Positions 12,389-32,000 of a DNA stretch of 32,000 nucleotides are shown here, in pieces (within the stretch, counting starts at the first letter, position 1; the number at the start of each line of letters is the position of its first letter). The notes under the pieces are model-generated. The model did no database searches. It was not told where the DNA came from and saw nothing but the letters and a program-made list of their open reading frames with translations. This stretch comes from Candidatus Omnitrophota bacterium (GTDB lineage: Bacteria; Omnitrophota; Gorgyraeia; Zapsychrales; JANLHA01): positions 750,001 to 782,000 of the forward strand of contig OY759724.1 in assembly GCA_963662715.1 (NCBI GenBank), in the 5' to 3' direction. The translations under genes were made by a program, and so were the position numbers.

Positions 12389-12428
12389 ACAGGCTTATTC
12401 CTTATTGAGGGGATGAGCCTGTTTTTTT
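12389..12428 (+). terminator. Rho-independent terminator (riboswitch expression platform)
   Basis: An 11-bp stem pairs 12390..12400 (CAGGCUUAUUC) with 12411..12421 (GGAUGAGCCUG, including G-U pairs). The loop is 10 nt and a run of 7 T follows at 12422..12428. AGCCUG also occurs inside the aptamer (12361..12366) and could pair with CAGGCU 12390..12395 as an antiterminator. Confidence 0.7.
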
Positions 12429-12513
12429 GGCCAAACGAGGTCAAAGGCCAAAACAGGAATACAAAAGCTCTGTGACCACTTTTCAGCCGGGTCTGCCTAG
12501 AAAGGAGACACTT

Positions 12514-12747
12514 ATGCAACGAATGAGATGGGCGGCTCTAATCCTCTTGATGGTGATTTCTCCGTCTTTGGGACAAGCGGAAATGCTGGCAAAAACCTCC
12601 GTGCTTAACAAACCACAGAAACAAGAACAGGTCGTTAAGAAAAAAGGCGCGATGATCAAAATCGGAAGTGTGCCTTACAGTAAAGACGGAGTGCTGAGAA
12701 AAGGAGCTGCGCTTAAAATAGGCTCCTATCCTTTGACCGAAAGTTAA
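12514..12747 (+). CDS. Small secreted Lys-rich protein (77 aa) with an internal GxxxKIGSxP repeat
   Basis: ATG 12514 is preceded by AAAGGAG (12501..12507). The protein begins MQRMRWAALILLMVISPSLGQA/EM, a signal peptide. The mature part contains GAMIKIGSVPY and GAALKIGSYPL. It lies downstream of the riboswitch and terminator. The longer track ORF (from 12427) would start inside the terminator. Confidence 0.65.
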   Translation: MQRMRWAALILLMVISPSLGQAEMLAKTSVLNKPQKQEQVVKKKGAMIKIGSVPYSKDGVLRKGAALKIGSYPLTES

Positions 12748-14374: not shown

Positions 14375-15163
14375 TCAAGACCTCAGCCTCACCGTAACAG
14401 CGGTTCCTGTTGCCGCCCGCAAATAATTGCGGGCATCTCCTCCCCGCACGGATATCTCCAGGAACTCCGAACTTCCAATAACGGAACAGATTTCCCCTTC
14501 CCTGACATCCTGATAAACGCGGGACAGGCCTCTAATCCTGACGTTCTTTATCTTTATCTGCACATCGTTTTTCTTTTTCCAGGAGTTCAGGGTCTCTTCT
14601 GCAATATTCGTCACCAAATTTCCGAACCCGTCAATATAAACAACCTTTCCTTTTATGGCATCCGGCTTAACTGCGGGCAAAGCAAAATCTAACAGGGACA
14701 TGTCATTTAATACCGGCCCCAAACGGCGCAGCGGGCCCCCTTTCGAAACCCATGCGGCGGCCGGGGCGAAAATATCCCGGCCGTGAAAAGTCCGGGAAAC
14801 CGGATGAAGCGCTAACTGACGATTTTTAATCCAGATGATTTTCCTGATCCCGTTATCCTGGGCCGCAAGGCTCAAAACCCCGTTATCCGGTCCAATAAAA
14901 TAATAGTCTTTACTGCGAACCAGAATCGGCTTTCGCTCTGACCCCACCCCGGGGTCGACCACAACAAGAAAAACAGTGTTTCGGGGGAAAAAGGAATAAC
15001 TGTTTTTCAGTAAGAACGCGGCATGGAAGATATCCTGGCCCGGGACGTCATGGGAAACATCAATCCACCTTGCCTCCGGGGAAATGTTTAAAATGACGCC
15101 TTTCATCACCCCGACATAATGGTCCTGCTTTCCGAAGTCTGTTAACAAGGCAATAGGTTTCAC
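14375..15163 (-). CDS. S-adenosyl-L-methionine hydroxide adenosyltransferase family protein (DUF62 / chlorinase-fluorinase fold)
   Basis: The N-terminus IALLTDFGKQDHYVGVMKGVI, plus VVDPGVGSERKPI, GPDNGVL and FHGRDIFAP, are characteristic of the PF01887 family. The start codon is GTG at 15163, preceded by AGGAGG. Confidence 0.85.
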   Translation of the reverse strand: MKPIALLTDFGKQDHYVGVMKGVILNISPEARWIDVSHDVPGQDIFHAAFLLKNSYSFFPRNTVFLVVVDPGVGSERKPILVRSKDYYFIGPDNGVLSLAAQDNGIRKIIWIKNRQLALHPVSRTFHGRDIFAPAAAWVSKGGPLRRLGPVLNDMSLLDFALPAVKPDAIKGKVVYIDGFGNLVTNIAEETLNSWKKKNDVQIKIKNVRIRGLSRVYQDVREGEICSVIGSSEFLEISVRGGDARNYLRAATGTAVTVRLRS

Positions 15164-17775: not shown

Positions 17776-17790
17776 TATTATTTGACAGAT

Positions 17791-17829
17791 AAAAAAAGCA
17801 CGTTTCTTAATAGAAACGTGCTTTTTTTA
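17791..17829. terminator. Bidirectional rho-independent terminator
   Basis: A perfect 10-bp stem pairs AGCACGTTTC (17797..17806) with GAAACGTGCT (17813..17822), with a 6-nt loop. An A-run lies upstream and a T-run (17823..17829) downstream. It sits between convergent genes. Confidence 0.8.
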
Positions 17830-17840
17830 TTTATTCTCCT

Positions 17841-18914
17841 TCAGCCGTCAATGGATATTAAATCATACTCCAGATTCCCTACCCCCAACTGAGCGGCATA
17901 ATTCAACTGCTTCATTCCGTCACGTTGAGGATGCGCCTCCCTGAAAATATCTCTGCCACACACGCGCACCACAGCATCATAACAGGCTTTATCGATACTC
18001 ACCGGGTCCGGGGATGCAAACAGCCCGACATCCGGAGAAATCCGCGGATCATCTTTGGCCAGGCAGTCGCATTCTTTCGTAATCTTAACGGCAAAATTGA
18101 TAAACACGGACGGCCCGCTGCGGCCGGCTAAGACGGCGTTCGCATATTCAACCATCTTTTCCTGAATAGTCGTGCCGCCCGACTCCCAAACGACATCTAT
18201 CGCTCCGTACGGACAGGCGGCGATACAGCTGGCGCAGCCGATACAGAGCTCTCCGTCAATCAAAGATTTCTGATCACTGATCTTTATGGCATCCGCAGGA
18301 CAGACCTCCACGCATTCCCCGCAGCCGACACACGCTCCCTCTTCAACATAAGGAGACACATCGCAATGCTGGGCCAGTTTCCCTTGCCGCGATGCGCAGC
18401 CCATCCCGATATTTTTCAAAGCGCCGCCGAAACCTGTCATCAAGTGGCCTTTAAAATGAGAAATATCAACGAGAACATCCGCGTCCAAAAACAGCGGCAC
18501 CACCTTGGCGACTTGAATGAACTTCTGGTTGATCGCCACGGCTCTTTCATTCTCGGGGATATTCTCCGGGATACGGATTTCGGCTCCGGTCTTTTCAAAG
18601 GTAAAACCATGTTCTGCCGCAAGGCTCAGATGATCTTGTGAATTCGTCCTTCTTCCCCGGTATAACGTGTTGGTATCCGCCATGACCGGAACGGCGTCTT
18701 TTTTTTTGATTTCCTCCGCGATAATTTTAACCCATTCCGGTTTAACATGGCCTTTGTTCCCCTGCTCCCCGAAATGCATTTTAAGGACAGCCTGATTCCG
18801 GGGCGCTATTTGAGAGAATATCCGGCTTGTCCGAATAAGCTTCCGTAATTTCTCCTGCACCGCAGAGACGCTGTCTGAATTCTGCACTTTAATAAAGTAT
18901 ACTGGACTTTTCAT
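17841..18914 (-). CDS. DUF362 domain protein with embedded 4Fe-4S dicluster ferredoxin domain
   Basis: Two ferredoxin motifs are present: CVGCGECVEVCP and CIGCASCIAACP. The flanking sequence (VYFIKV...LKMHFGE.GN...MADTNTLY..RR.N) is typical of DUF362. I place the start at ATG 18914, preceded by GAGGGAG. Confidence 0.85.
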   Translation of the reverse strand: MKSPVYFIKVQNSDSVSAVQEKLRKLIRTSRIFSQIAPRNQAVLKMHFGEQGNKGHVKPEWVKIIAEEIKKKDAVPVMADTNTLYRGRRTNSQDHLSLAAEHGFTFEKTGAEIRIPENIPENERAVAINQKFIQVAKVVPLFLDADVLVDISHFKGHLMTGFGGALKNIGMGCASRQGKLAQHCDVSPYVEEGACVGCGECVEVCPADAIKISDQKSLIDGELCIGCASCIAACPYGAIDVVWESGGTTIQEKMVEYANAVLAGRSGPSVFINFAVKITKECDCLAKDDPRISPDVGLFASPDPVSIDKACYDAVVRVCGRDIFREAHPQRDGMKQLNYAAQLGVGNLEYDLISIDG

Positions 18915-18979
18915 GATGACTCCCTCTATATCGTTTCTCAATTATCCGAAATACCCAAGGGCTGCGTCCGCCTTTCTTG

Positions 18980-20311
18980 TCACAGGGACACGCGTCTCTT
19001 GATTCTCTTTTTAGACGGGTTAAAATATCCCGTCATGATGCGGGGATACGTTTTCTTAACAAATCGTATCAGCTTCGGTATGTCCCACAACGCCTCAGGG
19101 GCGGGATGAAACCGAAGCAAACGGAAATAAGCCCGGGGATCGTAATTCAGATTCCGCCATTGAATCATATCAACAGGATATGCCGCCAGAAACTTCTGAA
19201 GAGCCGCAACTTCCTGACGGGAATCCGTAAAACCTGGGATGATCAAATAATTCAAAGAAATAAAAGCCCCCCGCTTCCGGGCAACCCTGACGGATTTCTT
19301 CACGTCCTTGAATGAATAATCTTTCGGCTGATAATAGCGTTCATAATACTTCGTTTGAACGCTGTTGAGGCTCACCCGGATGCTGTCCAGGCCGGCGTCC
19401 AAAAGCTTCGCAATCATACGGGGCCGGCTGGCATTGGTGTTTAAATTAATAATCCCTTTTCTGGTTTTGCTCCGGATGAGTTTAACGGCTTTTTCGATCA
19501 CCGGTCCCGCCAGCAGCGGTTCTCCTTCACAGCCCTGCCCGAAACTGACCACCGGGTCCTTCACGTGGAGGATATGAAACAGGGCCACCTCGGCGATTTC
19601 CTCCGGGCTGGGCACAAAACGGATACGCGGCTGCGTGACAGGGCACGTGCCGCCGGGCTGCAGAGAAAGACACCCGGCACACTGCGCGTTGCAGGACGGC
19701 GATGTCGGCAGCGGGCCTTCATATCTTTTGAGAAAGAAATTCTTGGCCGCCGGGCACTGATTGACAAGGGCACAGTTTTCCAAATGCCGCACCAGCCTGT
19801 TTTTGGGGAACATTTTTTCAAATATTTTCACGTTTCTGCGAACCCGTTTCATATCCATAAAACGGACATCCTGACGGAGTTCCCGGTCAACACGTATCCC
19901 GCTGACATAGAAATCCCCCTCATAGAAGGCCACCGCAGCGTAGGCAAAAAGCGGCAGCAACCCCGTGTGCGGAATTTCAAGATACGCGGCATTCTCCGTC
20001 ACTGTATATCCCGGCGCCATAAAAGCCGCCACAGCATAACAGGGCTCGGGGCCTTTTGTGTTAAATGGATTTTGTTCCAAAGAGACAAATTCCCGCGATT
20101 CAGGATCAAAACCTACGGGGAACCGGTCAGGCAACATAAAAAGCTGACTGCCGTAAGGCAGTTTCGTCATCCGGGATAAACGGAGCCGGCTGTAATGCCC
20201 GCCCCGCATTCCGGCGGAAGCCAGGAAAGGCACATTGTAAATACGGCCCTCTTTATCTGCGACACACAATTCCGGGTAACGCGCCCGGGAGGATACGACA
20301 CTCATCGTCAT
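18980..20311 (-). CDS. Radical SAM protein with ~200-aa N-terminal extension
   Basis: The CX3CX2C motif SCNAQCAGC lies at about nt 19668..19697, and a downstream GQGCEGEPLL glycine-rich SAM motif is present. The SD AAGAGGAAA overlaps the stop of the upstream gene, suggesting translational coupling. Confidence 0.85.
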   Translation of the reverse strand: MTMSVVSSRARYPELCVADKEGRIYNVPFLASAGMRGGHYSRLRLSRMTKLPYGSQLFMLPDRFPVGFDPESREFVSLEQNPFNTKGPEPCYAVAAFMAPGYTVTENAAYLEIPHTGLLPLFAYAAVAFYEGDFYVSGIRVDRELRQDVRFMDMKRVRRNVKIFEKMFPKNRLVRHLENCALVNQCPAAKNFFLKRYEGPLPTSPSCNAQCAGCLSLQPGGTCPVTQPRIRFVPSPEEIAEVALFHILHVKDPVVSFGQGCEGEPLLAGPVIEKAVKLIRSKTRKGIINLNTNASRPRMIAKLLDAGLDSIRVSLNSVQTKYYERYYQPKDYSFKDVKKSVRVARKRGAFISLNYLIIPGFTDSRQEVAALQKFLAAYPVDMIQWRNLNYDPRAYFRLLRFHPAPEALWDIPKLIRFVKKTYPRIMTGYFNPSKKRIKRRVSL

Positions 20312-20319
20312 TTTCCTCT

Positions 20320-21627
20320 TTATTTTTCAATGTCCAAAATATCTATTTTTAAAATTTTCAACCGAACCATCTGTTCTTTTGTGAGGATGTCCGAGAGCTT
20401 TCTTTCGACGTCTTTCTTAATCTTATTGATCTCCTCCAGGTACGTCGTACGGCCTCCCGGGACAGAAAGGCTCAACAGCTCCAGAAACTTCTGCATCTTC
20501 TTGATATCCTGCAGATCGGAAGATTCGAGATCCTGGATTTCCTGAATCATGTTGCGATGATCTTTCCTCGGCTTTTGCAGAAGATCCCACATGCGCACCT
20601 TTCCGGAATAGATGACGTCCCAAACAGGCAGTTTTTGCCGCTGCTCCATCTCCAGCTGTAAGGCCAAATTCTGCATCGTCGGCTTTTTCTTCGGCACGTA
20701 TTCTTCCCGCCGTCTTTTCCCCCCTTGTTTTGTTAGGCTCTGTAAATGCGCCTCCAGGAGAGGAAGAACACGCGGGTTTAGAAGATATTGCCCGGCTCGT
20801 GATAACCCGCCGTGCATAGCGGAATTCAATTCAAGGAAATCATTAAACTTCCGGGATATTTCTTCATAATAATGAACCATTTGCTTGGCTAAACGTGTTT
20901 TATGTATTAACACATCCTCCTCGGTCATCCGCCTCGCTTCCTCCGCAACGGAAAGCAGTCTTTTTCTCTCCTGCTCTTTCTCCTCCGGAGCCATCACCCC
21001 GAAGTGCACTTCCCGGTCAAAAAGCAGATTATCGACAAAATCCTCCACAAAACTTTCATAGGCTTTCGGAGGCAAACGGTTGATGAGCAGCAGAATGTTC
21101 TCGATGGCTGACAAGTCCGAACCGGCCTGCCCGGCGCGGATAGGATTGGAAAGTTCCTGGGGCGGAATAATACAGGGCTGAAATCGCTGAATGATATATT
21201 TCTGACTGTCGTCCAAGATATCGTTCAGACGGCGGTCGAAGTCTTTTATATCGGCATAAAAGCCCTGCTGCTGCATCTTCAGCTGTTGCTCGATATCCTG
21301 GACTTTCTTCTGTTCACCGGCGGAAAAGCCTTCATTAGCCTGAAGAACCGTCTTAAACTCTTTTAGAACGAGAAGATATTGATCCTGAAGTTTTTGGTTC
21401 CGGGCAACAAACGCATCCCGGGTCTTTTGGACCTCCGCGGCCAGGGCGATCAGCTCTTCGACCTGATCCGCGGTTAAATATATCCCGTTTAAAAGGTTCA
21501 GCAGGCTGACATCTTCAGTGACGGCTGCGATCTCTTTTGTTTCCAGGACGTTCAACCAGTCTTCAGCGCTCACAGACCGGTAAACAAAAAAACAGAATAT
21601 TAAAAAAAATAAAAAAAATTTTTTCAT
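20320..21627 (-). CDS. Secreted coiled-coil protein with LTxxQ (Spy/CpxP-like) motifs
   Basis: The signal peptide is MKKFFLFFLIFCFFVYRSVSA/ED. The body is highly charged and helical, with LTADQ near the N-terminus and LTKEQ near the C-terminus, like the periplasmic LTXXQ-motif family. This assignment is tentative. Confidence 0.7.
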   Translation of the reverse strand: MKKFFLFFLIFCFFVYRSVSAEDWLNVLETKEIAAVTEDVSLLNLLNGIYLTADQVEELIALAAEVQKTRDAFVARNQKLQDQYLLVLKEFKTVLQANEGFSAGEQKKVQDIEQQLKMQQQGFYADIKDFDRRLNDILDDSQKYIIQRFQPCIIPPQELSNPIRAGQAGSDLSAIENILLLINRLPPKAYESFVEDFVDNLLFDREVHFGVMAPEEKEQERKRLLSVAEEARRMTEEDVLIHKTRLAKQMVHYYEEISRKFNDFLELNSAMHGGLSRAGQYLLNPRVLPLLEAHLQSLTKQGGKRRREEYVPKKKPTMQNLALQLEMEQRQKLPVWDVIYSGKVRMWDLLQKPRKDHRNMIQEIQDLESSDLQDIKKMQKFLELLSLSVPGGRTTYLEEINKIKKDVERKLSDILTKEQMVRLKILKIDILDIEK

Positions 21628-21717
21628 CGATCGGCTCGCGGGGACGGATGCCCCGATTTTATTTGTATATGAATGAAATATTTTATCCCCGAGGGATTAA
21701 ACAGACGGGATGAAACC

Positions 21718-22716
21718 CTACGGCATATCCACACCGTCTAAAATTCTGTCCACCAGATTCTCGGCCGTTATGTTCAGCCCGCGGGCCTGGTAACTTTCGA
21801 TTAACCGATGGCTCAGAACATCCCGGGCCACAGCTCTGATGTCCTGCGGCCGCACATAAGCCCGGCCCTGAACCAAGGCGTAGGCCCGGCTGGCCACGGA
21901 AAGATGTATGCCGGCCCTCGGTGAAACACCGTATTTAATAAGCCCGACTAAATCATTCATCCCGAACTTATCCGGCTGGCGGGTTGCTTCAACAATATCC
22001 AAGATATAATCCTGCACCTTTTTTTCGATATGTATGCGGTCTACAAGGGTTCTGAGCCGCAGGATATGTTCAGGGTCCAGGACGGGATTGACGTCGAATT
22101 TGACATCGGTAAAAGCCATGCGCTGCAGGATCAACGCTTCTTCCTCCCGTGTCGGATAAGTCATCGACACCTTCAACATAAACCGGTCCAATTGAGATTC
22201 GGGCAAGGGATAAGTCCCGTCCTGCTCTATCATGTTCTGGGTGGCGAGGACTAAAAACGGCTCTGTTAATGCATAAGAGGCATCCCCGATCGTGACCTGC
22301 CGCTCCTGCATGGCTTCCAGCAGCGCGCTCTGGACTTTGGCCGGGGCACGGTTAATTTCATCCGCTAAAACAATGTTGGCGAACACGGGCCCTTTTTTAA
22401 CATAAAAAGACGCCGTACGCTGGTCGTACACCGGGGCCCCGGTTAAATCCGCCGGGAGCATGTCAGGGGTAAACTGAATACGGCTGAACTGCAGCTGCAC
22501 GGCCATGGCGAACGTTTTTACGGCCAGGGTTTTCGCCAGGCCGGGCACGCCTTCGATGAGGATATGCCCTCCGGCGAGCATCCCCAGAAGAATACGCTCA
22601 ATCAGGTCCTTCTGCCCGACAATAACATTTTCTATCTGCTGAAAGAATTCTCCGAATTTCCGAGACTCGTGCTGGATTTCTTTTTCTAACTCTTTCATCG
22701 TAGATTCTTTCATCAT
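21718..22716 (-). CDS. MoxR-family AAA+ ATPase
   Basis: The sequence reads VGQKDLIERILLGMLAGGHILIEGVPGLAKT (MoxR Walker A, GxPGxAKT), then LADEINRAPAKVQSALLEAMQE (Walker B/sensor region), then ATQNMIEQDGTYPLPESQLDRF. The size (332 aa) fits. Confidence 0.9.
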   Translation of the reverse strand: MMKESTMKELEKEIQHESRKFGEFFQQIENVIVGQKDLIERILLGMLAGGHILIEGVPGLAKTLAVKTFAMAVQLQFSRIQFTPDMLPADLTGAPVYDQRTASFYVKKGPVFANIVLADEINRAPAKVQSALLEAMQERQVTIGDASYALTEPFLVLATQNMIEQDGTYPLPESQLDRFMLKVSMTYPTREEEALILQRMAFTDVKFDVNPVLDPEHILRLRTLVDRIHIEKKVQDYILDIVEATRQPDKFGMNDLVGLIKYGVSPRAGIHLSVASRAYALVQGRAYVRPQDIRAVARDVLSHRLIESYQARGLNITAENLVDRILDGVDMP

Positions 22717-22740
22717 ATATCCCCTCTCCTGTTTTCTTCC

Positions 22741-25700
22741 TTACCAGTAAAAAATCCGGTTTTCATCTCCGGCCAGCGTTTCAACCAGATTTTTTTCACT
22801 CATCTTAGCACCGACCATAAAAATATTCATCTTTTTTTCACGAAGAGGACTCATCCGGATCTCCTGCTCCGTTCTCTGCATAAAGTCCGTCAACGCGACC
22901 TGCTGTAAGAAAACATCATTTTCTTCAGACGTATAAAAATCCAATCCGGAGATATCCAGCGTCATATGCCCGGCGATGCTTTGTTCATATCTTTCTTTGA
23001 TCTTCGTCAAAATTTTCTCGGAAAAAGACAAACAGTCTCTATCGGCAGAAAGACGTACGGGATATTCATGCAACGTTCCCGTGGGGTCAATCAAAATCAG
23101 TCTCTCTAACACCGTTTCGGAACGGAACAGATGGAACATTTTGACCGAACGGGCAAAGTCCCTGGCCCAAAGCCTTCGGCCCTCTTCATAATGCAAACCC
23201 CTCATATCCAGCCACAGGGCGACGCGGGCCCCGTAAGGATTGCTGAAGCGTCTGACCATGGGAACGGATGTGGCATAGCGCGCCGTGGCCTTCCAATCAA
23301 TGTGCCGGATATCGTCTCCCGACATATACTGCTCAAGCCGGTCAAACTCCACGCTCGTTTCATTGTTTTCCGGGATTTTGTCTCTCAGAAAATTAAAATT
23401 CATATGGGTCACCCGGGATTCCTGGAGGAGAAAGTCAAAAACCAGGGGTTTGACCCTGTCCAGGACATTGTCTCCTCGCGCCTTGGGGGCATTCTTCTGC
23501 GGCGGGGTATAAGTGTAAAAGATCTTTTTAAAACGGCTGTATAAAGACGGACAGGACGCTGTTTCCCGGATTTGAGTCAGCATAGACGCGATACTGTCAT
23601 TATATTCTTCCCGCAGATGAAAATATTTCTGCACCGGCCATATCCATAAAGCACGGCCCAGGTAAGGCCCCAAGAACGGCAGAAAAAACAACAGGTCATG
23701 CGCCTTGTTAACGACAGCTGATTTCTGCGGATTCAAGGGCGCCAGGAAAAGACAAACATCAAAAATAAACCGTTCTTTATCGCTGGCGGTTGATTTAAAC
23801 GCGCAAATATCCTTTTTAAGCTGAGGGTCTATCTGCCCTTTGGCAAGATAAACGCGTTTCAAAAGTTTCCTTTCCCGCTGTTCGGCTCCGAAGCTGTAGC
23901 CTTTGGCCCAGGGATTGTTGTTATAAATGCGGTCGATAATACTGGCCGGATCCCGGCCGTAAAACCTGCGTTTTCTATACGGAGCTCCCAGGGTATGAAT
24001 AAAGAATGCCGATAAGTTGAAAAAGATGAAGACAAAAACAGCTGCCGCGATGGATTCCGCGCTGGTAGCCTGGGGCAGGTGTTCGGAACGATAAAAAATC
24101 AAGCTGAGGGCATTGCGCAAAAATGACCACAAATGAAAGCCCCCTCCAACGCTGTCGGCTGTCCCGTCAAAAATAAAACGGGGTCCGCTTCTGGGGCCGA
24201 CCAAACCCACGCCGCCCAGGATATAACCCCGCTGTGCGATTCTGTGATCCGTTCCGTAAATGACTTCCTGAAAATTTGACATGACGGACATGTACCGGCC
24301 CGGCTCGGCCGTGGACAAATATTTCTCCGGTTCGCGATAAAGAAGATACGCCACTTCATGAAGAACATCATTGTCCATTTTTTGGATGTCGGCGGCGATA
24401 CGCCGGATGCGGTCTTTTTCAAAACGGTTGGAGATCAAAGGAGCTTTCCGGCCGGGGTTCTGCTCTGACAAATAAATGGACAGCCCGTTAAGAATCCCCT
24501 TGGAAGCTTGAGAATAATGGTCGAATTCATCCCCTTTTAAGGTTTCGGCCACCAGTCTCTGAGAGATGTACTCCTTCCGGTCACCGGCCCATAAAACCGG
24601 GGCCAGCATAGAATTCAATTCAATATTTTCGGGTAACGGCTTATTTTCAAAACGAAAACGCAGGTGATCAACGACGTGTCCCGTTTCATGAAAGGCCGTC
24701 CATTCCACGTGAGAAGTCATCCGGCGGAAAACAATGGCAAATTCACCTTCAAAGTATCCTGCCCGGTCAAGAAAAGGATACTCCTCTCCTTCCACGACAT
24801 AAGAAACAGCCGGCCACAACTCTGATCTTTTAACCTTCTCCCTATCCATTCCCAGACGCTGAAACGCCTCTTCAGCAAAAACGTACCGTTTTAAGATCGG
24901 TTCCGAGAACAAAAAAAGATAAGGAACGTCCTCTTCCAAAATAATAAAGGTAAAAGGAAAAACATTATAAGAGATAAATGCTCTTCTCAGATCCAGAAGT
25001 TCATTTCTTAAAGCCCCTTCCTGTATGGTCTGCTGCCCGAACAGCGTGATGATATTGCCGATAGAACGCGCGATACGTCCGTCAAGATAATAAGCCGCTT
25101 CCACGACATCGTTCTTCAGCTGGGCATCCAGGTTCCAGTCTGCCATCAGCAGAAAAAAACCTTTGAGGATATGCCGGCAGAAAAAGAGGAACCCTTCCCG
25201 GGAACGGTAAAGCCTTTTAGCGTAAAAAACGCGAAGATTATGTCTTATCTGCTCCGGAGAATAAGTTTCCCCGATAGCTGCGACCCGGGTTTTGAAGTAT
25301 CCTTCTTTTTCTTTATCGGCGAGGGATTCGGCATCAAATTTGAAAATCTTTTTTAGCTCAAAAACAAAAACCCGCCATAACCGGTTATCCGCATCCGTCC
25401 GCTCCAGGGCGGCCAAACAGAGTCCGGACAACACAAAAGCCAGAACCAAAGCCGCCGTTAAATTTCGAAATCTTTTCCGCTGGCCGGCCCGGACAAACCG
25501 GACAAAAGGATCGACGGTACGCCGGTACATATCCTTAAGCTGGTCGGAAAAAGGATAATACCCGTGCAGCCAGTCTTCCAGTCGGATAAGCCAGGCGCTT
25601 TTCCCGGAGCCTTCCTCCCTGAAATCTTCGGGAACGGCGGCCGTTAAAGTTTTCTGAGCTTCTATGAAAAGCCCGGTCATGGCTTCCTGGGCCATAGTGA

Positions 25701-26316
25701 TCTGAAAACGGTTACGCAGGTTATAATGACTTTCCGTGAGGATAAAACGCAAATACCGGTAAATATGACCGCATAACTTATGATAAACAACCCGCCAGGG
25801 GCTGGTGTTGGCCGGGATGCGGTCCAATTGCCGTTTAAGAAGATATATTTCGCGTTCCCGTGCCTCGGGCCACAGGCCTTTTTTAGCTTTATCTTCCAGG
25901 TCCTTCCAAAGATCGCTGGCCTCTTTTTCAACACGGTGACGTTCTTTATCGTGCCGTTTTCCCGGCTGTTTCCCGGGCAGATTTTCTTCGGCGGGCCAGC
26001 GCAGATCGGCATAAAACGCGATCCATCGCCTGGTTTTAAAATAAATAGCATCAATCTGTGACAAATATTTCAGAAAAAACGGCTGTAATTGCGGCTTGTC
26101 CGCCGGGGTATGTTTCTGTAACGACAGAATATATGCCCTCAGGCGGTGATGGGATAATTCCACCTGCCGGTCGATAGATAAAATACTTAATGTATCTGCT
26201 TTGGGATGGCGGATGCTTTTTCGATAGGCATCTTCTAATCTGCGGATATGCTTAAGAGGCTCTTCGCTCAAATTCTCGGAGAGAGCGAAAAATTTTTTAA
26301 TAAAAGAAAAAGTCAT
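22741..26316 (-). CDS. Large (1191 aa) membrane protein: N-terminal region with HExxH motif fused to a C-terminal DUF58 domain
   Basis: The DUF58 signature YMSGDDIRHIDWKATAR lies at about nt 23280..23320. HETGH lies at nt 24676..24690 in the context EWTAFHETGHVVDH. Hydrophobic helices LTAALVLAFVLSGLCLAAL and AAAVFVFIFFNLSAFFIHTL are present. The stop is 24 nt before the MoxR start. Confidence 0.85.
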   Translation of the reverse strand: MTFSFIKKFFALSENLSEEPLKHIRRLEDAYRKSIRHPKADTLSILSIDRQVELSHHRLRAYILSLQKHTPADKPQLQPFFLKYLSQIDAIYFKTRRWIAFYADLRWPAEENLPGKQPGKRHDKERHRVEKEASDLWKDLEDKAKKGLWPEAREREIYLLKRQLDRIPANTSPWRVVYHKLCGHIYRYLRFILTESHYNLRNRFQITMAQEAMTGLFIEAQKTLTAAVPEDFREEGSGKSAWLIRLEDWLHGYYPFSDQLKDMYRRTVDPFVRFVRAGQRKRFRNLTAALVLAFVLSGLCLAALERTDADNRLWRVFVFELKKIFKFDAESLADKEKEGYFKTRVAAIGETYSPEQIRHNLRVFYAKRLYRSREGFLFFCRHILKGFFLLMADWNLDAQLKNDVVEAAYYLDGRIARSIGNIITLFGQQTIQEGALRNELLDLRRAFISYNVFPFTFIILEEDVPYLFLFSEPILKRYVFAEEAFQRLGMDREKVKRSELWPAVSYVVEGEEYPFLDRAGYFEGEFAIVFRRMTSHVEWTAFHETGHVVDHLRFRFENKPLPENIELNSMLAPVLWAGDRKEYISQRLVAETLKGDEFDHYSQASKGILNGLSIYLSEQNPGRKAPLISNRFEKDRIRRIAADIQKMDNDVLHEVAYLLYREPEKYLSTAEPGRYMSVMSNFQEVIYGTDHRIAQRGYILGGVGLVGPRSGPRFIFDGTADSVGGGFHLWSFLRNALSLIFYRSEHLPQATSAESIAAAVFVFIFFNLSAFFIHTLGAPYRKRRFYGRDPASIIDRIYNNNPWAKGYSFGAEQRERKLLKRVYLAKGQIDPQLKKDICAFKSTASDKERFIFDVCLFLAPLNPQKSAVVNKAHDLLFFLPFLGPYLGRALWIWPVQKYFHLREEYNDSIASMLTQIRETASCPSLYSRFKKIFYTYTPPQKNAPKARGDNVLDRVKPLVFDFLLQESRVTHMNFNFLRDKIPENNETSVEFDRLEQYMSGDDIRHIDWKATARYATSVPMVRRFSNPYGARVALWLDMRGLHYEEGRRLWARDFARSVKMFHLFRSETVLERLILIDPTGTLHEYPVRLSADRDCLSFSEKILTKIKERYEQSIAGHMTLDISGLDFYTSEENDVFLQQVALTDFMQRTEQEIRMSPLREKKMNIFMVGAKMSEKNLVETLAGDENRIFYW

Positions 26317-26510: not shown

Positions 26511-26645
26511 CTATCCCCTTACCGGGGTGGAAGAAACGACAAATGAACTTCCATAGGAATCCGTGACTTCCAGTATTTCAAATAAATTCCCGAACCAGAT
26601 AGCCACAAGAAACAAAGGAATAAATATGTAAGCTGTTCTTTTCAT
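26511..26645 (-). CDS. Candidate 44-aa hydrophobic peptide (below the ORF-track size cut-off)
   Basis: My own translation is MKRTAYIFIPLFLVAIWFGNLFEILEVTDSYGSSFVVSSTPVRG, ending at stop TAG (26513..26511). It is preceded by the strong SD GAGAGGAGAAAAGA-ATG. It has one N-terminal TM-like helix, and a hairpin terminator follows. Confidence 0.4.
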   Translation of the reverse strand: MKRTAYIFIPLFLVAIWFGNLFEILEVTDSYGSSFVVSSTPVRG

Positions 26646-26858: not shown

Positions 26859-27083
26859 TTAAATAATACTCCCGAAGGGGTTCCGGGGGCCGAGATTAAC
26901 GGCTCGCAGAAACGAAGGAAGTTTTCTGGCGGGGATAATAATTTCCGTGACCTTTTCTCTTGTCACGTCTTCAAAAATCATCTTTAAACCAACCTGGCCT
27001 TCATCATCACTGAAATGTTTGGCATAAAGGCTGTAATTCGCTCCGCAATCGCTCCATTCAATGAGTTCATTAATTCTGGCCAT
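26859..27083 (-). CDS. Hypothetical 74-aa soluble protein
   Basis: The ORF has a GGAG SD 5 nt upstream of its ATG. A perfect consensus promoter lies about 45 nt upstream of the ATG. I recognise no family. Confidence 0.6.
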   Translation of the reverse strand: MARINELIEWSDCGANYSLYAKHFSDDEGQVGLKMIFEDVTREKVTEIIIPARKLPSFLRAVNLGPRNPFGSII

Positions 27084-27126: not shown

Positions 27127-27155
27127 ATTATATTATTCCGCCATTTTCATGTCAA
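27127..27155 (-). promoter_or_regulatory. Perfect consensus sigma70 promoter (TTGACA-17-TATAAT)
   Basis: The minus strand reads TTGACA (27155..27150), then the 17-nt spacer tgaaaatggcggaataa, then TATAAT (27132..27127). It lies directly upstream of the 74-aa ORF and downstream of the giant-gene terminator. Confidence 0.65.
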
Positions 27156-27216: not shown

Positions 27217-27253
27217 GAAAAAAGAGAGCCTCAAAAGGGGCCCTCTTTTTTTC
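27217..27253. terminator. Bidirectional rho-independent terminator after the giant gene
   Basis: The stem pairs AGAGAGCCUC (27223..27232) with GGGGCCCUCU (27237..27246), with one mismatch and one G-U pair, and an AAAA loop. An A-run (27218..27223) and a T-run (27246..27252) flank it. It lies about 60 nt downstream of the stop at 27311. Confidence 0.65.
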
Positions 27254-27310: not shown

Positions 27311-30300
27311 TCAGAAAACATCCTGCTTGGCGCCGGCGTCTAACGATGACAGCTGATCTTCATCGCCGGGCTCAACGTCCGAATCCGAACCGAATAACAG
27401 CGGGAGGTTGGGAACAGGGGTGATATTAATAATAACAGGTAAAAATCCTCCGATATCCATCTGCTGAACAGGCTGCTGCGGCAGAGGCAAAGGAACGCCT
27501 TCCCCGTCACGCTTGATCTGCAGATCCAACAGTTGAGGATTAAGATTGATACCTCCATACTGCCCGTTATCAACAACCTCTTCCGTTATCGCCGATTGAA
27601 ACAGGGGTGACGATGCAACCGCTTGCTGAATGATCTCCTGGCTAGGCAGATAAAGATCTCTGCCGTCGGACAATTCCGGCCTTCTCAGCTTCTCGACATT
27701 ACCGTCAGCAGCGAACAAATTTTTCATAACTTCATTCCATTTGGCTATATCCTGCTCAGACATGTCACGGACCGGCTCCAGCAGACGATCAACTTCAGCC
27801 AGCAATCCCTTTTCCCGGCTTAATTCCAGGAAAACCTCTTGGAGAGCTTCTTCCGGATTAGCCGAATGCACCGCATCTTCAAAAATGGTTTCCGTGCCCC
27901 AGGCCTGGTAAAGAGCCGTCTCAATATCCCCCTCGACTAAATTATCATAAATAGTTTTTAAAGGTTCCAGACCTTCTCTCCCGAGTAAATCTTCAAGATG
28001 ATGGATCAGGTCCCCCCGTCTGTTATAAGCCGTGCCGTTGTTGGAGTGATGCGCAATCACTCTGCGCAGCTGCTCGCCGCTCAGCTTAAGCCGTTCATAG
28101 GTCGCAAGGAAATCCGCAACAGAGGGCTCACTGCTCGCGATATTCTGAACGCCCTTCTCATTAATATACTGCCAGAAAAAAGGATCTCTGTCTTCCACGG
28201 GTTGATCCAACGCCGTCAATACGGCTTCCTTATGCTCCAGCAAGTCGTTTATCAACCGGGCCCGCTGGGTCTTCATCTTAAGAGCAAGCTGTAACAACTG
28301 CAATTGGGCCCTGGACTGACTCTTTTCCACATCAACTTTAGGGGAGGTCCGCAGGGCATTATACAGAAGCTGTTTACTCTCTGTATTGAACCTGTTGCCC
28401 AATCTTGCCAGTCCGACCAAAAGATTGCCGGCCGACGGGCGCCGGCCTCCGCCTTCCTGCTGGCTTTTCCGGCCGCTATACTTAATCAGATAACCGTTTC
28501 TTATTTCGTATTCCCCGTATTTCAGCCCGCGCAACAATTCATTATGAGTGAGGCCGGTTTTAATGACATCGACTCTCTGCCCGGTGCGCACGTCAATCAC
28601 ATCAAACAGTTCCGGCATCGTCCCGCCCCAGACCCCGAACATAAAAGCGCCGTTGGTAAGGGCCTTCATCATACTTGTCGCAGACGCTTCCAGAAACTCG
28701 TCCGACAACATAATCGTCGCCGCCACCCCGCGGAAAATCAGCGGAGCGTCATAAGGGTTGTAATTTTCAAGAAAGGCAATTTGATCCCCGAGGCCCAGAT
28801 CCTTGACCATGCCTTTCAACTCTTCGAACAGCTGATTGGCTTCGTGCCCAAAGATTCTTCCGCCCAGAGCCAGCCGCATCTTGGAATCCCGGAACTGTTT
28901 AAGCGCTCTGGGGTCCTTTAAAATCCCGAGGATCTCTTTATAAATGTCCGGCCCTTTATAAGGCACCTGCCGGCGAAGGTTCGCCGCAACAGGGTTCTGA
29001 ATTAAAACATCCTTCAATTTCCCGAGTTTCTCATCCAAGGCTCTCCATTGTCCCTCATTCTTAACATCCGCTAAAGCCTGATTAAGCAGGCCCGCATATT
29101 CTTCCCGTAAAGCCCTGACGTCCGTCTGGCTGTCCAGCCCCGATTCCTTGAGGAGCTGGGCAAGCCACTGGGATCCACCCAAATCCTGCGTCTGGTTCTC
29201 CTGTAACCAGAGATAAAGGTCCATCATATACAGCACCTTAATCTGCTCAAACTGGCTCTGAAAACGGGCCAGCTCAGCGGGGTTTTCTTCCAGTTTGTCA
29301 TAAAACTGCACGTCGTCTGTTTGAGCGGTTAAACCCAACGATACTTTGTAATCATCAATGATGCTTCTCAGTTCATGGCCCTGCCACTGGTCAAAAAGGA
29401 CCCCGTTGCTGTTACGCTGCTCTCCCTGATACCATTGCCAAATTTTATGCGCAAGATCAGGAAGCAGATTGTTTCTCAAGACCGGAGTATGTTCATACAC
29501 ACTGACCCCCATAAAAAGATCGACATTTTCCGCGGCATACCTCACGATATCGATAACATCCCGGCCGCCTTCCTTAAAGACAATGGCCTGCCGGTCTTTC
29601 TCCTCAAAACCCATTAACTTAAAGGCATATTCCGGAGGGTTGTACATCGCCGGCTTATAAACACTGTGGTTGATCTCGGCCCTCATGGCTGTTTCCGTGA
29701 CAGGCGGCTGCTCAATCCCAAGCTCGGCGAGATCCATTTGTTCGTTTTTCGGCAAGCTGACGAAAATTTCATTTTCCACCCAGGTGACTTTACTTTTTAT
29801 TCTCCCGTCCGCCTGTAACATCCTGGCGAACCGCTGGGTCGCCTTGTTGTACACAACCATCTGAATGACCCGCCAGTCCTTGGCCGGGGAAATCTCATCA
29901 GAATATATCTCGTCAAAAATATACTGTTTGTTCCCGTCATCATCAAGATAATAGGCGTCTTCATAAAACTCCGGAAGCGTCGTGAAGGAAGACTCCAGTT
30001 CATAAAGATCAACGGTGATCGGGCGCCCCTGCGCCTGCGCCAGCAATTCCTTCATTTTGGCGAATTTTTCATCATCCAATTCAGAAAAAGCTTCCCGGGC
30101 CTCATCTTCTAATCCTTTAAGCACATACTGGCTCTGATCGAGATACCCCATCTGGATCAGACGCGAGGAAAGGGCTTCGGCCAGTCCGCCATCTACGCCA
30201 AGCTGTTCCAGTTCCTGCTTGGAAACAGCTCGGCCGACCAGCTGTTTCGCCTTGTCAAAAACGGCTTTGTTTCTGAAATCCGTATCATTCAACCGTAACG

Positions 30301-32000
30301 TAACACTCTTCTGCGCCGGCGGCAACACGTCCCTGATTAACTGCCCCAGAGCGACACTCCCGTCTGCGATATAGTTTTTGAAAATCTCTTCCGGGACTTC
30401 TCTAACTGTTCCTTTTATACGGTTGTTCAACGTATTAAAAGAAACAACATCAACGCCCGCCCTCTTCCAGGCGACAACGAGATCATGCATCAACGCGCCC
30501 AAACCTCCGCTCATATTGACCTGAGAAATGAAACGGGTCAGTTCTTCCCCATATTTGGCTGCCAGCGTGTCGACCAGAAATCCGCGGTCCAGGGAGGCCT
30601 CCATCTGCAAACTGATAACCGTGCGGTCCATAAGATCGGGAACATTTTGGGCCGCCCAGGAATTTTCATCAACACCCTGCAGGTCAGCCTCCGTCGTCTC
30701 CCCCATCCGGACCGGCGCCGCTTTCTTGCCGTTTAACACGTCAACGGCCTCGGCCATAAAATCCAATATCTGCAAAGCGCTCAAAAGTTTCCGCTGATCT
30801 ATTCTTGATAAACTTGTCCGCACCGATGTCTCCGGCAGTTGCAGCGGAGATGAGACCGCTCCCTGTCCGTCTATCGACAAGCGGACAACATCATCCATCG
30901 CATCAGCCGCGGCCTTATTTCCGACTTCGGTGAGATTCACCTGGATATTAATAGGAGAACTCCCTGAAGCTGTTCCGGCCCCGCGCTCCTGATAACGGGC
31001 CGGCAGGTTTCCGCGAAGGTCTTCCCTTATATGTTTCACCGCCGTAAGCTGCATCCCTCCGGAAAAATACTTCCGGGGAATCGGCTGGGTCTCCTCCGGG
31101 TGGTTCTCTTCGCGGATATAATTGAACACGCCTTTTTCAAAAGCCATGAGATATTGTTGATAAATTTTCTCGCTGATCCGCTTGTCCTCGACATCAATGC
31201 CTTTTGTTCTGGTCTTATTGACATAAACCTTCCCCAGCAGGGATTGCCGCAGATTGTCTTTATACCAGGAGGCTAAAATGACCGAGTTATATATCTGCCG
31301 AAGGTTGGAAAACGTCTTGCTTTCATTCACTTCCTTTTCAAGTTCCGGGATGAGGATCTCCCGGACAATATCAGAAACATCCCCGCTGATTTCTTTGGCT
31401 TCATGGTCAGAGACATGATCAAGCCCGAATTTTTTAGTGCCCCGGGTTTTCTGTAAAGCAAGATAATCCTGTTCAAGCATAACCTTTAAATGGCTGTCGA
31501 CCACATAAGCTCCGCCGGCTTTCTCGTAAACGACAGCTTTATCCGGAACAATCCAGATTTTATTAAAAGTATTGACCGGGATATTGATCGTCCCGAAACG
31601 CCGGTAAGCTTTCTCATAAGCCCTTTGCCAGAATTCCTGCCCCAGTTTTTCTTCCGGATAAATTAACGAAGCAGAAATTTGTTTCAGCAAATAGTCTAAA
31701 GCTAAAAGATCCCGTCCCATTTCCGTCTTCCCGAAGGCCTTCGGGATAATACGGTCTTTTTCATAAGGGGAAAGGTTGACCCACATGTCTTCTTCCGGAA
31801 TTGTGAGAGCAGCCAGAAAATACTTAATTAAGTCCGTGGCTTGACGCCGGAATTCCTTCCCGTCAGGGTCCTCGTCTCCGGGATCAACAATAAAATCCAG
31901 ACGTAAGGGCTGGTCAGGATAAATCCGGACGCCCTGGATAATCATCGGGTTAAAAGTGCCGCTGAGACGGAGCATCTTCCCGGGAGGCGGCAGGTCCGGC
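27311..32000 (-). CDS. Giant secreted modular protein paralog (at least 1562 aa, N-terminus beyond window end) with head domain, embedded GT35 alpha-glucan phosphorylase-like domain and C-terminal tail motif
   Basis: The track ORF starts at an internal Met (31975). The frame stays open to 32000 and reads ...PDLPPPGKMLRLSGTF, which aligns with SLPQPGRILKISETF of the 2770-aa protein, so the true start is outside the window. Head-domain blocks LIKYFLAALT, WVNLSPYE, NIPVNTFNKIWIVPDKAVVYE and PRKYFSGG are shared. The phosphorylase motifs SGGLGALMHD and FLENYN...EASATSMMKALTNGA are present. The tail reads GGINLNPQLLDLQIKRDGEGVPLPLPQQPV...FLPVIINITPV. Confidence 0.9.
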   Translation of the reverse strand, partial: PDLPPPGKMLRLSGTFNPMIIQGVRIYPDQPLRLDFIVDPGDEDPDGKEFRRQATDLIKYFLAALTIPEEDMWVNLSPYEKDRIIPKAFGKTEMGRDLLALDYLLKQISASLIYPEEKLGQEFWQRAYEKAYRRFGTINIPVNTFNKIWIVPDKAVVYEKAGGAYVVDSHLKVMLEQDYLALQKTRGTKKFGLDHVSDHEAKEISGDVSDIVREILIPELEKEVNESKTFSNLRQIYNSVILASWYKDNLRQSLLGKVYVNKTRTKGIDVEDKRISEKIYQQYLMAFEKGVFNYIREENHPEETQPIPRKYFSGGMQLTAVKHIREDLRGNLPARYQERGAGTASGSSPINIQVNLTEVGNKAAADAMDDVVRLSIDGQGAVSSPLQLPETSVRTSLSRIDQRKLLSALQILDFMAEAVDVLNGKKAAPVRMGETTEADLQGVDENSWAAQNVPDLMDRTVISLQMEASLDRGFLVDTLAAKYGEELTRFISQVNMSGGLGALMHDLVVAWKRAGVDVVSFNTLNNRIKGTVREVPEEIFKNYIADGSVALGQLIRDVLPPAQKSVTLRLNDTDFRNKAVFDKAKQLVGRAVSKQELEQLGVDGGLAEALSSRLIQMGYLDQSQYVLKGLEDEAREAFSELDDEKFAKMKELLAQAQGRPITVDLYELESSFTTLPEFYEDAYYLDDDGNKQYIFDEIYSDEISPAKDWRVIQMVVYNKATQRFARMLQADGRIKSKVTWVENEIFVSLPKNEQMDLAELGIEQPPVTETAMRAEINHSVYKPAMYNPPEYAFKLMGFEEKDRQAIVFKEGGRDVIDIVRYAAENVDLFMGVSVYEHTPVLRNNLLPDLAHKIWQWYQGEQRNSNGVLFDQWQGHELRSIIDDYKVSLGLTAQTDDVQFYDKLEENPAELARFQSQFEQIKVLYMMDLYLWLQENQTQDLGGSQWLAQLLKESGLDSQTDVRALREEYAGLLNQALADVKNEGQWRALDEKLGKLKDVLIQNPVAANLRRQVPYKGPDIYKEILGILKDPRALKQFRDSKMRLALGGRIFGHEANQLFEELKGMVKDLGLGDQIAFLENYNPYDAPLIFRGVAATIMLSDEFLEASATSMMKALTNGAFMFGVWGGTMPELFDVIDVRTGQRVDVIKTGLTHNELLRGLKYGEYEIRNGYLIKYSGRKSQQEGGGRRPSAGNLLVGLARLGNRFNTESKQLLYNALRTSPKVDVEKSQSRAQLQLLQLALKMKTQRARLINDLLEHKEAVLTALDQPVEDRDPFFWQYINEKGVQNIASSEPSVADFLATYERLKLSGEQLRRVIAHHSNNGTAYNRRGDLIHHLEDLLGREGLEPLKTIYDNLVEGDIETALYQAWGTETIFEDAVHSANPEEALQEVFLELSREKGLLAEVDRLLEPVRDMSEQDIAKWNEVMKNLFAADGNVEKLRRPELSDGRDLYLPSQEIIQQAVASSPLFQSAITEEVVDNGQYGGINLNPQLLDLQIKRDGEGVPLPLPQQPVQQMDIGGFLPVIINITPVPNLPLLFGSDSDVEPGDEDQLSSLDAGAKQDVF

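Follow-up and report, generated by a model that had tools for sequence, protein, structure and literature searches.

We analysed a stretch of 32,000 nucleotides (nt) from a Candidatus Omnitrophota bacterium (contig OY759724.1, positions 750,001 to 782,000 of the forward strand), hereafter the window, whose first letter is position 1 in all coordinates below. Five packed minus-strand genes, which the initial annotation had taken for a single MoxR system, lie between positions 17,841 and 26,316 and encode a 1191-amino-acid (aa) membrane protein, a MoxR AAA+ ATPase, a 435-aa secreted protein, a radical S-adenosylmethionine (radical SAM) protein and a DUF362 protein. We conclude that the functional unit is probably made of two genes, not five: that of the 1191-aa protein (open reading frame (ORF) 22741..26316, minus strand), the core partner of MoxR, and that of MoxR just downstream (ORF 21718..22716, minus strand; 332 aa, of the MoxR-proper type). 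The reading that we favour, and hold to be reasonably likely, is that this pair is a membrane-anchored variant of the MoxR-vWA remodelling pair, coupled to a putative gluzincin. Both this pair and its connection with giant proteins of the midasin type are new and can be tested.

Conservation of the pair and make-up of its two proteins

Firstly, the pair stays while its surroundings change among lineages. The large protein followed by an adjacent MoxR was found in six of eight lineages, namely the clade to which the window belongs and the loci L084, L085, L087, L169 and L170. At these five loci MoxR comes directly after a full-length homologue of the 1191-aa protein (1150–1203 aa); the MoxR orthologues are 70% (L084), 66% (L085), 65% (L087), about 69% (L169, partial) and 58% (L170) identical to that of the window, and the tblastn identity of the large protein is 36–40% in L084, L085 and L087. 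The pair persists as the identity of MoxR falls from about 85% to about 57% and that of the large protein to about 35% or less, and the genes that come after the more distant pairs differ: PilZ genes in L085, an Exo_endo_phos gene in L087 and opposite-strand genes in L170. The family of the large protein was badly under-reported by a word-indexed homologue search, which returned five relatives (P0002–P0006). When 1.84 billion representatives were searched with a profile of its N-terminal 945 aa, 82 proteins matched, of which about 22 are full-length clusters (50% identity) of 1130–1224 aa. Those members that bear names belong to Candidatus Omnitrophota, and all organisms with the family are uncultured metagenome-assembled genomes (MAGs). 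Variants of 2.7–3.2 thousand aa keep the N-terminal domain and the transmembrane (TM)/DUF58 end and have a different middle.

Secondly, the large protein has a composite architecture, with an N-terminal helical domain (aa 1–285), a first TM helix, a zincin-like domain of about 440 aa, a second TM helix, a conserved linker and a DUF58 domain in that order. TM1 (aa 286–304, LTAALVLAFVLSGLCLAAL; 25405..25461, minus strand) reaches a Kyte-Doolittle peak of 2.49 and is flanked on its N-terminal side by six lysines or arginines and no aspartate or glutamate; TM2 (aa 755–777; 23986..24054, minus strand) peaks at 2.35, with five and none on its C-terminal side. Both helices are conserved in the family, whose members have a TM helix at the position equivalent to TM1. 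Because of these hydropathy peaks and of the positive-inside charges of the flanks (+6/0 and +5/0), the N-terminal domain and the linker with DUF58 are predicted to be cytoplasmic and aa 305–754 to lie outside. The linker, from aa 778 to about 990, is very conserved and includes the invariant AHDLLFFLPFLGPYLGR. A full-length AlphaFold2 (AF2) model built from six sequences had a predicted local distance difference test score (pLDDT) of 51, too low for any statement about the structures of the N-terminal domain, of the linker and of DUF58.

The DUF58-type vWA-like domain occupies aa ~951–1191 (22744..23466, minus strand). It was recognized by Pfam DUF58 (PF01882) with 29.6–32.4 bits against a cut-off of 23.4, over profile positions 4–45 of 216 only (aa 996–1039), and it carries the GDDIRxIDW motif, which is invariant in the family. 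Its beta-1 strand is an invariant LWLDMR; it has neither the DxSxS metal ion-dependent adhesion site (MIDAS) nor a Pfam VWA match. Comparison of the C-terminal 285 aa with the PDB gave spurious matches only, such as an acyl-CoA thioesterase at E 0.01. The initial annotation had placed a DUF58 domain at the C-terminus of a 1191-aa membrane protein with an HExxH, ahead of MoxR, and here it was right on every count, as seen from Pfam, from the ORFs and from H543-E-T-G-H547.

Thirdly, the partner is a MoxR-proper ATPase. Pfam returns AAA_3 (4e-63; 211.6 bits against a cut-off of 27) and AAA_lid_2 (4e-18; 65.4 bits against 22.7), and both the Walker A (GVPGLAKT, at aa 56) and the Walker B (IVLADE, at aa 115) motifs are intact. 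Its closest solved structure is 2R44 (5.6e-101), followed by midasin. The adjacent vWA or DUF58 partner gene by which MoxR ATPases are recognized is present, in the form of the gene with DUF58, whose end is 24 nt upstream of MoxR. Outside the window, the same 3.36-Mb contig encodes another MoxR paralogue (P0241), 57% identical to that of the window; the window MoxR is therefore a dedicated copy.

The zincin-like domain and its giant relatives

The zincin-like domain (aa 310–750; 24067..25389, minus strand) lies between TM1 and TM2. Its putative active site, HETGH-x18-E (24619..24690, minus strand), comprises H543, E544, H547, N564 and E566, all five of which are invariant in an alignment of 47 diverse family sequences, giant proteins included; G524 and Y601 are likewise invariant, and GYFEGE and YYxQAxKGIxNG motifs are strongly conserved. 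AF2 modelled this domain from a 37-sequence alignment with a pLDDT of 85.1 and a predicted template-modelling score of 0.82, in the order helical N-lobe, beta-sheet, HExxH helix and Glu-bearing helix. The two helices are model residues 228–248 and 258–267, so that the model has the gluzincin arrangement of an HExxH with the third-ligand glutamate on the next helix.

The searches against known families were negative. The domain has no Pfam match at E≤10, the whole 1191-aa protein has no match in NCBIfam, and no similarity to M41 was found with Pfam or with a profile search of the PDB. That profile search gave oligopeptidase A (M3) as its best match, over the HExxH region, at a non-significant E of 0.36. 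Foldseek against the PDB returned nothing significant either; the best match was dipeptidyl peptidase III (M49), at E 0.099 and a template-modelling score of at most 0.2, and the weak top matches were gluzincins (M49, M32, M61 and M2, the family of angiotensin-converting enzyme). The domain resembles the gluzincins (M1, M3, M49 and others) in its HExxH-x18-E, with a spacing as in M1, and in the succession of sheet, active-site helix and Glu helix. In contrast, the GYFEGE and YYxQAxKGIxNG motifs are peculiar to its own family, which matches no gluzincin significantly. Judged by its sequence, the zincin-like domain is a new domain family without a Pfam entry.

The same domain is found inside giant proteins of 2.1–7.6 thousand aa, and two clusters of the domain family carry Omnitrophota names. 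We scanned seven giants of 2.1–4.5 thousand aa against Pfam (P0280, P0281, P0282, P0288, P0290, P0293 and P0308). An AAA_5 module, of the dynein/midasin type, ends about 10–140 aa before the zincin-like domain in all seven, and a Pfam VWA domain begins about 140–170 aa after it in five; most of these proteins have no TM helix. An AAA module, the zincin-like domain and a vWA-type domain thus recur fused in the giants and split in the window, which is evidence of the Rosetta-stone type that the pair is one machine. The likeness to midasin/Rea1-like giants lies in the position of the zincin-like domain, between AAA_5 modules and a C-terminal VWA, of which the window pair looks like a split and membrane-anchored form. 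It differs from them in having a separate, single-module MoxR, a vWA-like part of the DUF58 type and two TM helices flanking the central domain. Eukaryotic midasin is not known to have a zincin-like domain. As to individual giants, P0290 additionally contains long arrays of HEAT repeats and a methyltransferase domain, and P0281 shows a weak, sub-threshold match to the Death-effector domain.

Proposed working of the pair and competing readings

The workings of MoxR ATPases and most of their clients are poorly understood, and DUF58 is without an assigned function. The MoxR clade, midasin included, generally acts with vWA co-chaperones (PMC7159879), and in the NorQ-NorD pair the ATPase acts on its VWA partner by twisting and stretching the linker of the latter (PMC13036017). 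By analogy, the vWA-like DUF58 domain of the large protein, in the cytoplasm, would be the docking site of a MoxR hexamer; once docked, it would pull or twist the conserved linker between TM2 and DUF58, as NorQ does with NorD; and the movement of the linker would switch or position the zinc-peptidase-like domain. So understood, the pair would be the counterpart, within the MoxR clade, of a metalloprotease coupled to an AAA+ ATPase, and its target would be the envelope. The initial annotation had considered an envelope-spanning module of the protease type, and this proposal is supported in part, for the first two genes only: they form a conserved pair, the HExxH is part of a strongly conserved gluzincin-like signature, and the zincin-like and DUF58 domains are predicted to lie on opposite sides of the membrane. 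A broader proposal, possible but on balance doubtful, is that the Omnitrophota possess an undescribed class of AAA+-coupled zinc metallopeptidases built on the MoxR/midasin clade and not on FtsH or Lon, with a fused giant form and a split membrane-anchored form; in the split form, ATP-driven pulling on the DUF58 linker would control proteolysis across the membrane.

Comparison with described systems brings out what is particular to the pair. The canonical MoxR-DUF58-vWA operons (Bat of Bacteroides, BB0170-0176 of Borrelia, moxR1-Rv1480-Rv1481 of Mycobacterium) share with it a MoxR of the AAA_3 type (closest to 2R44), an adjoining DUF58 gene and an expected association with the membrane. In those operons, however, the order is MoxR, a stand-alone DUF58 and BatA/BatB, with or without BatC/BatD, whereas here the DUF58 gene comes first, DUF58 makes up only the last fifth of a protein that also has an N-terminal helical domain, two TM helices and an unclassified zincin-like domain, and there is neither a MIDAS nor a match to a vWA-TM protein of the BatA/BatB type or to a tetratricopeptide-repeat protein among 14 ORFs of the window. 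The absence of a BatA/BatB-type vWA gene had already been remarked in the initial annotation and agrees with the Pfam scan, in which none of the 14 window ORFs covered, a set that does not include a 2770-aa ORF, had a VWA match. NorQ-NorD, CbbQ-CbbO, CoxD-CoxE and RavA-ViaA are similar in combining an AAA+ hexamer with a vWA-like adaptor, and a conserved linker N-terminal to the vWA-like domain could transmit force as in these systems (PMC13036017). They differ in that no metalloenzyme client is identifiable here, the radical SAM and DUF362 genes not being conserved neighbours, and in that the adaptor is membrane-embedded and carries a putative catalytic domain. FtsH, too, is a single machine that is anchored in the membrane and has both an ATPase of the AAA+ type and a zinc site with HExxH (putative in our case). 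Its AAA module is of the classical clade and is fused to the M41 protease, both are cytoplasmic, and substrates are threaded, whereas the window encodes a separate ATPase of the MoxR clade and a zincin-like domain predicted to lie across the membrane. Searches of the full-text literature on MoxR with DUF58, on DUF58 with HExxH and on Omnitrophota giant genes with AAA brought up no description of the arrangement or of the domain, in keeping with the earlier remark that it was not a described system.

What sets the pair apart is that its DUF58 adaptor shares one polypeptide with a putative catalytic zincin-like domain and with two TM helices. Such a link would give a MoxR-vWA machine a concrete and testable output, proteolysis or the control of a protease, and would open an initial way into some of the giant Omnitrophota proteins that lack annotation.

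Several observations weigh against a membrane-anchored remodelling pair coupled to a gluzincin. Neither Pfam nor the PDB sequence searches nor Foldseek matched the domain significantly to a peptidase family, and it is the motif, and the motif only, that suggests peptidase activity. The compartment of the domain is the weakest step of the mechanism: in the TM-free giants it must share the compartment of the AAA modules, which either conflicts with an extracytoplasmic site in the 1191-aa protein or means that the compartment differs with the architecture. A very conserved hydrophobic stretch at aa 850–895, just under the TM threshold, could also alter the topology. The DUF58 match spans just 44 residues and the MIDAS motif is absent. 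Two of the eight lineages (L086 and L168), which hold more distant members of the family, have no adjoining MoxR. Within the clade, finally, the gap between MoxR and the radical SAM gene measures 5–10 nt, consistent with co-transcription, and a clade-specific functional link of the radical SAM and DUF362 genes to MoxR may exist.

Of the competing readings, the one that survives best, though we judge it unlikely, takes the domain as a non-peptidase derived from a zincin, serving as a metal- or peptide-binding linker of a machine of the MoxR/midasin type, so that the pair would act solely as a chaperone that remodels a complex of the membrane or envelope. It would fit the lack of significant likeness to any peptidase family, and the domain of the giants sits between the AAA modules and VWA, where midasin has its linker. 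However, the catalytic glutamate and the NxE helix are also invariant, in 47 of 47 sequences at about 25–70% identity, which is the pattern expected from purifying selection on catalysis.

A second reading, which we consider improbable, makes the large protein and MoxR a module of the conflict or defence type, whose zincin-like effector would be released on a threshold signal, and not a housekeeping factor of the envelope. Several conflict systems with peptidase effectors have been predicted that are indeed built around MoxR-vWA pairs (PMC7159879); Pfam bpMoxR matches the ATPase with 46 bits (cut-off 27); and the domain is found in giant proteins of the Omnitrophota that diverge fast, one of them with weak sub-threshold matches to the Death-effector domain (24.0 against 35.9 bits) and to nSTAND3 (20.1 against 27.2). 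Yet the 211 bits of AAA_3 are far above the 46 of bpMoxR, PADLOC was empty for all five proteins, and ordinary chromosomal genes surround the pair in every lineage examined, with no signs of mobile elements. The MoxR-vWA ternary conflict systems (Kaur et al. 2020) have a third component, and no VMAP, iSTAND, FtsH or beta-propeller protein that could be one is present among the neighbours. We retain the membrane-anchored remodelling pair with a putative gluzincin as the preferred reading. A third reading, which takes all the genes as one system, is weighed below with the genes that it concerns.

The downstream genes and the layout of the locus

The radical SAM gene (ORF 18980..20311, minus strand) encodes a 443-aa protein with a Pfam Radical_SAM match (4e-16; 60 bits against a cut-off of 29.5). 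Its N-terminal domain (about 200 aa) is conserved and precedes C207-x3-C211-x2-C214, the cysteines being invariant. Against NCBIfam (MoaA, PflA, NrdG and others) the best score of the protein was 34 bits for cut-offs of 129–500, that is, no named subfamily. It belongs to a widespread orphan family of at least 7980 homologues, with identities of 55–70% within the Omnitrophota and of 45–50% in the Desulfobacterota (cultured Desulfopila, Desulfocicer and Desulfobacter included), and with a member in a Nitrospirae MAG. From 597 loci confirmed by tblastn we kept 80 loci of GTDB species representatives with 10-kb flanks and searched them with all proteins of the window. At 79 of the 80 there was no MoxR, DUF58 or DUF362 within 10 kb; only L004, which is of the same clade, has all of them. 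No neighbour is conserved in the other Omnitrophota. In the Desulfobacterota, where the gene usually sits between a 141-aa gene and a prmA-like gene, the neighbours are housekeeping genes, which were read, on inspection only, as an L11 methyltransferase (prmA), a Fur-family regulator, tyrS and RNase Y.

The DUF362 gene (ORF 17841..18914, minus strand, with an ATG start and 357 aa, or 17841..18941 with a TTG start and 366 aa) is best started at the ATG at 18914, the residue at which the homologue alignments begin. Its product matches Pfam DUF362 (6.5e-40) and contains an inserted 2x[4Fe-4S] ferredoxin domain (Fer4, with two 4Fe-4S motifs). Among its orthologues, the context of MoxR and radical SAM is kept only in L088 and L089 (63–66% identity, same clade), while L090–L114 (31–60% identity) have no partner genes nearby.

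The order large protein, MoxR, radical SAM, DUF362 is kept in six members of the clade (the window, L001, L002, L004, L088 and L089). This synteny extends to unrelated flanking genes, those of TRL, a 404-aa ORF and a beta-CASP protein; the shared gene order is thus as expected from recent common ancestry alone. The neighbourhood check, on which the initial annotation had beforehand made its five-gene system depend, found the adjacency in one narrow clade only. The maturation of the radical SAM and DUF362 proteins by MoxR, its other suggestion, fared no better: no such arrangement is seen around the 79 radical SAM loci, around the DUF362 orthologues of 60% identity or less, or at the distant pairs of large protein and MoxR. 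The reading in which four or five genes form one system, with MoxR and DUF58 maturing or loading the metal centres of the radical SAM and DUF362 proteins, has in its favour the tight spacing, the lack of a terminator-like site before 17832, the gene order of the six clade members with MoxR-radical SAM gaps of at most 10 nt, and the precedent of NorQD, CbbQO and CoxDE, which mature metalloenzymes (PMC13036017), but it is very improbable given the 79 radical SAM loci of other species and the DUF362 orthologues without any partner, the unrelated genes that follow the more distant pairs and the unrelated flanks within the clade synteny. The radical SAM gene and the DUF362 gene each stand on their own and are widely conserved among anaerobes; only in this clade do they lie downstream of MoxR. 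They are probably co-transcribed with the pair there, because no terminator precedes 17832. The attractive link between MoxR and the maturation of Fe-S enzymes comes from an accident of synteny in a single clade and ought not to be passed on.

The 435-aa gene (ORF 20320..21627, minus strand) encodes a helix-rich protein with an N-terminus that resembles a signal peptide and with two strict LTxxQ strings, where 0.12 are expected (p ~0.006). The initial annotation had called it a periplasmic LTxxQ protein of the Spy/CpxP type. The Spy/CpxP label is unsupported, there being no Pfam match and no PDB sequence match at E≤10. Spy/CpxP chaperones are about one third of its length. The gene is absent from all five clade relatives (L001, L002, L004, L088 and L089), in which the MoxR-radical SAM gap is at most 10 nt, and tblastn found no relative of the protein in any of the 170 loci fetched. 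On this sequence comparison, it is a recent insertion confined to this genome and outside the conserved module. It has no clear Shine-Dalgarno (SD) sequence, and a GC-rich hairpin (CGGGG-7-CCCCG, 21639-21655), terminator-like on the plus strand only, lies in the 90-nt gap between it and MoxR; both features may be scars of the insertion.

The gaps between the five genes are, in order, 24, 90, 8 and 65 nt, the last with the ATG at 18914, and the ORF coordinates bear out the packing noted in the initial annotation. So does the sequence at the two junctions where it had seen SDs overlapping the upstream stops: SD-like AGGAG and AAGAGG stand at or just past the stop (large protein/MoxR and 435-aa/radical SAM). 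NCBIfam assigned none of the five proteins to a specific subfamily, and an Rfam scan had no match in the five-gene region. The array is closed by a bidirectional terminator-like hairpin with a 20-bp stem (17787..17832, unstranded), between the DUF362 gene and the convergent TRL gene. Upstream of the array there is another terminator-like hairpin (27218-27251), and downstream of this hairpin a perfect sigma-70 consensus, TTGACA-17-TATAAT (27127..27155, minus strand), stands ahead of a 74-aa and a 44-aa ORF. As a consensus match only, it may mark where the transcription unit starts.

The 74-aa ORF (26859..27083, minus strand) follows this consensus and is 82–85% conserved in the clade, but in the relatives it lies several kb farther from the gene of the large protein. 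The 44-aa ORF (26511..26645, minus strand) is directly upstream of that gene, has a good SD and encodes a single TM segment. ORFs 61–62% identical to it occupy the same position in L001 and L002, but its conservation does not extend beyond the clade, and it is an uncertain member of the module of large protein and MoxR. Farther out, two giant ORFs of 2770 and 1554 aa (440..8752 and 27311..31975, both minus strand) are paralogues, with a common N-terminal part of about 330 aa (60% identity), a common C-terminal 56 aa (77%) and unrelated middles. Neither contains the zincin-like domain, and the 1554-aa protein has no Pfam match. A SAM hydroxide adenosyltransferase gene (SAM_HAT_N and SAM_HAT_C; 14375..15163, minus strand) is located 2.7 kb past the DUF362 gene; the loci of the clade relatives did not yield it, and we therefore see no link to the radical SAM gene. 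On the plus strand, a c-di-GMP-I-GGC riboswitch aptamer (RF03167, 12299-12376; 65 bits against a gathering threshold of 59, E 2e-13) is located directly upstream of a small ORF (12427..12747, plus strand), whose product has a signal-peptide-like segment, MQRMRWAALILLMVISPSLGQA.

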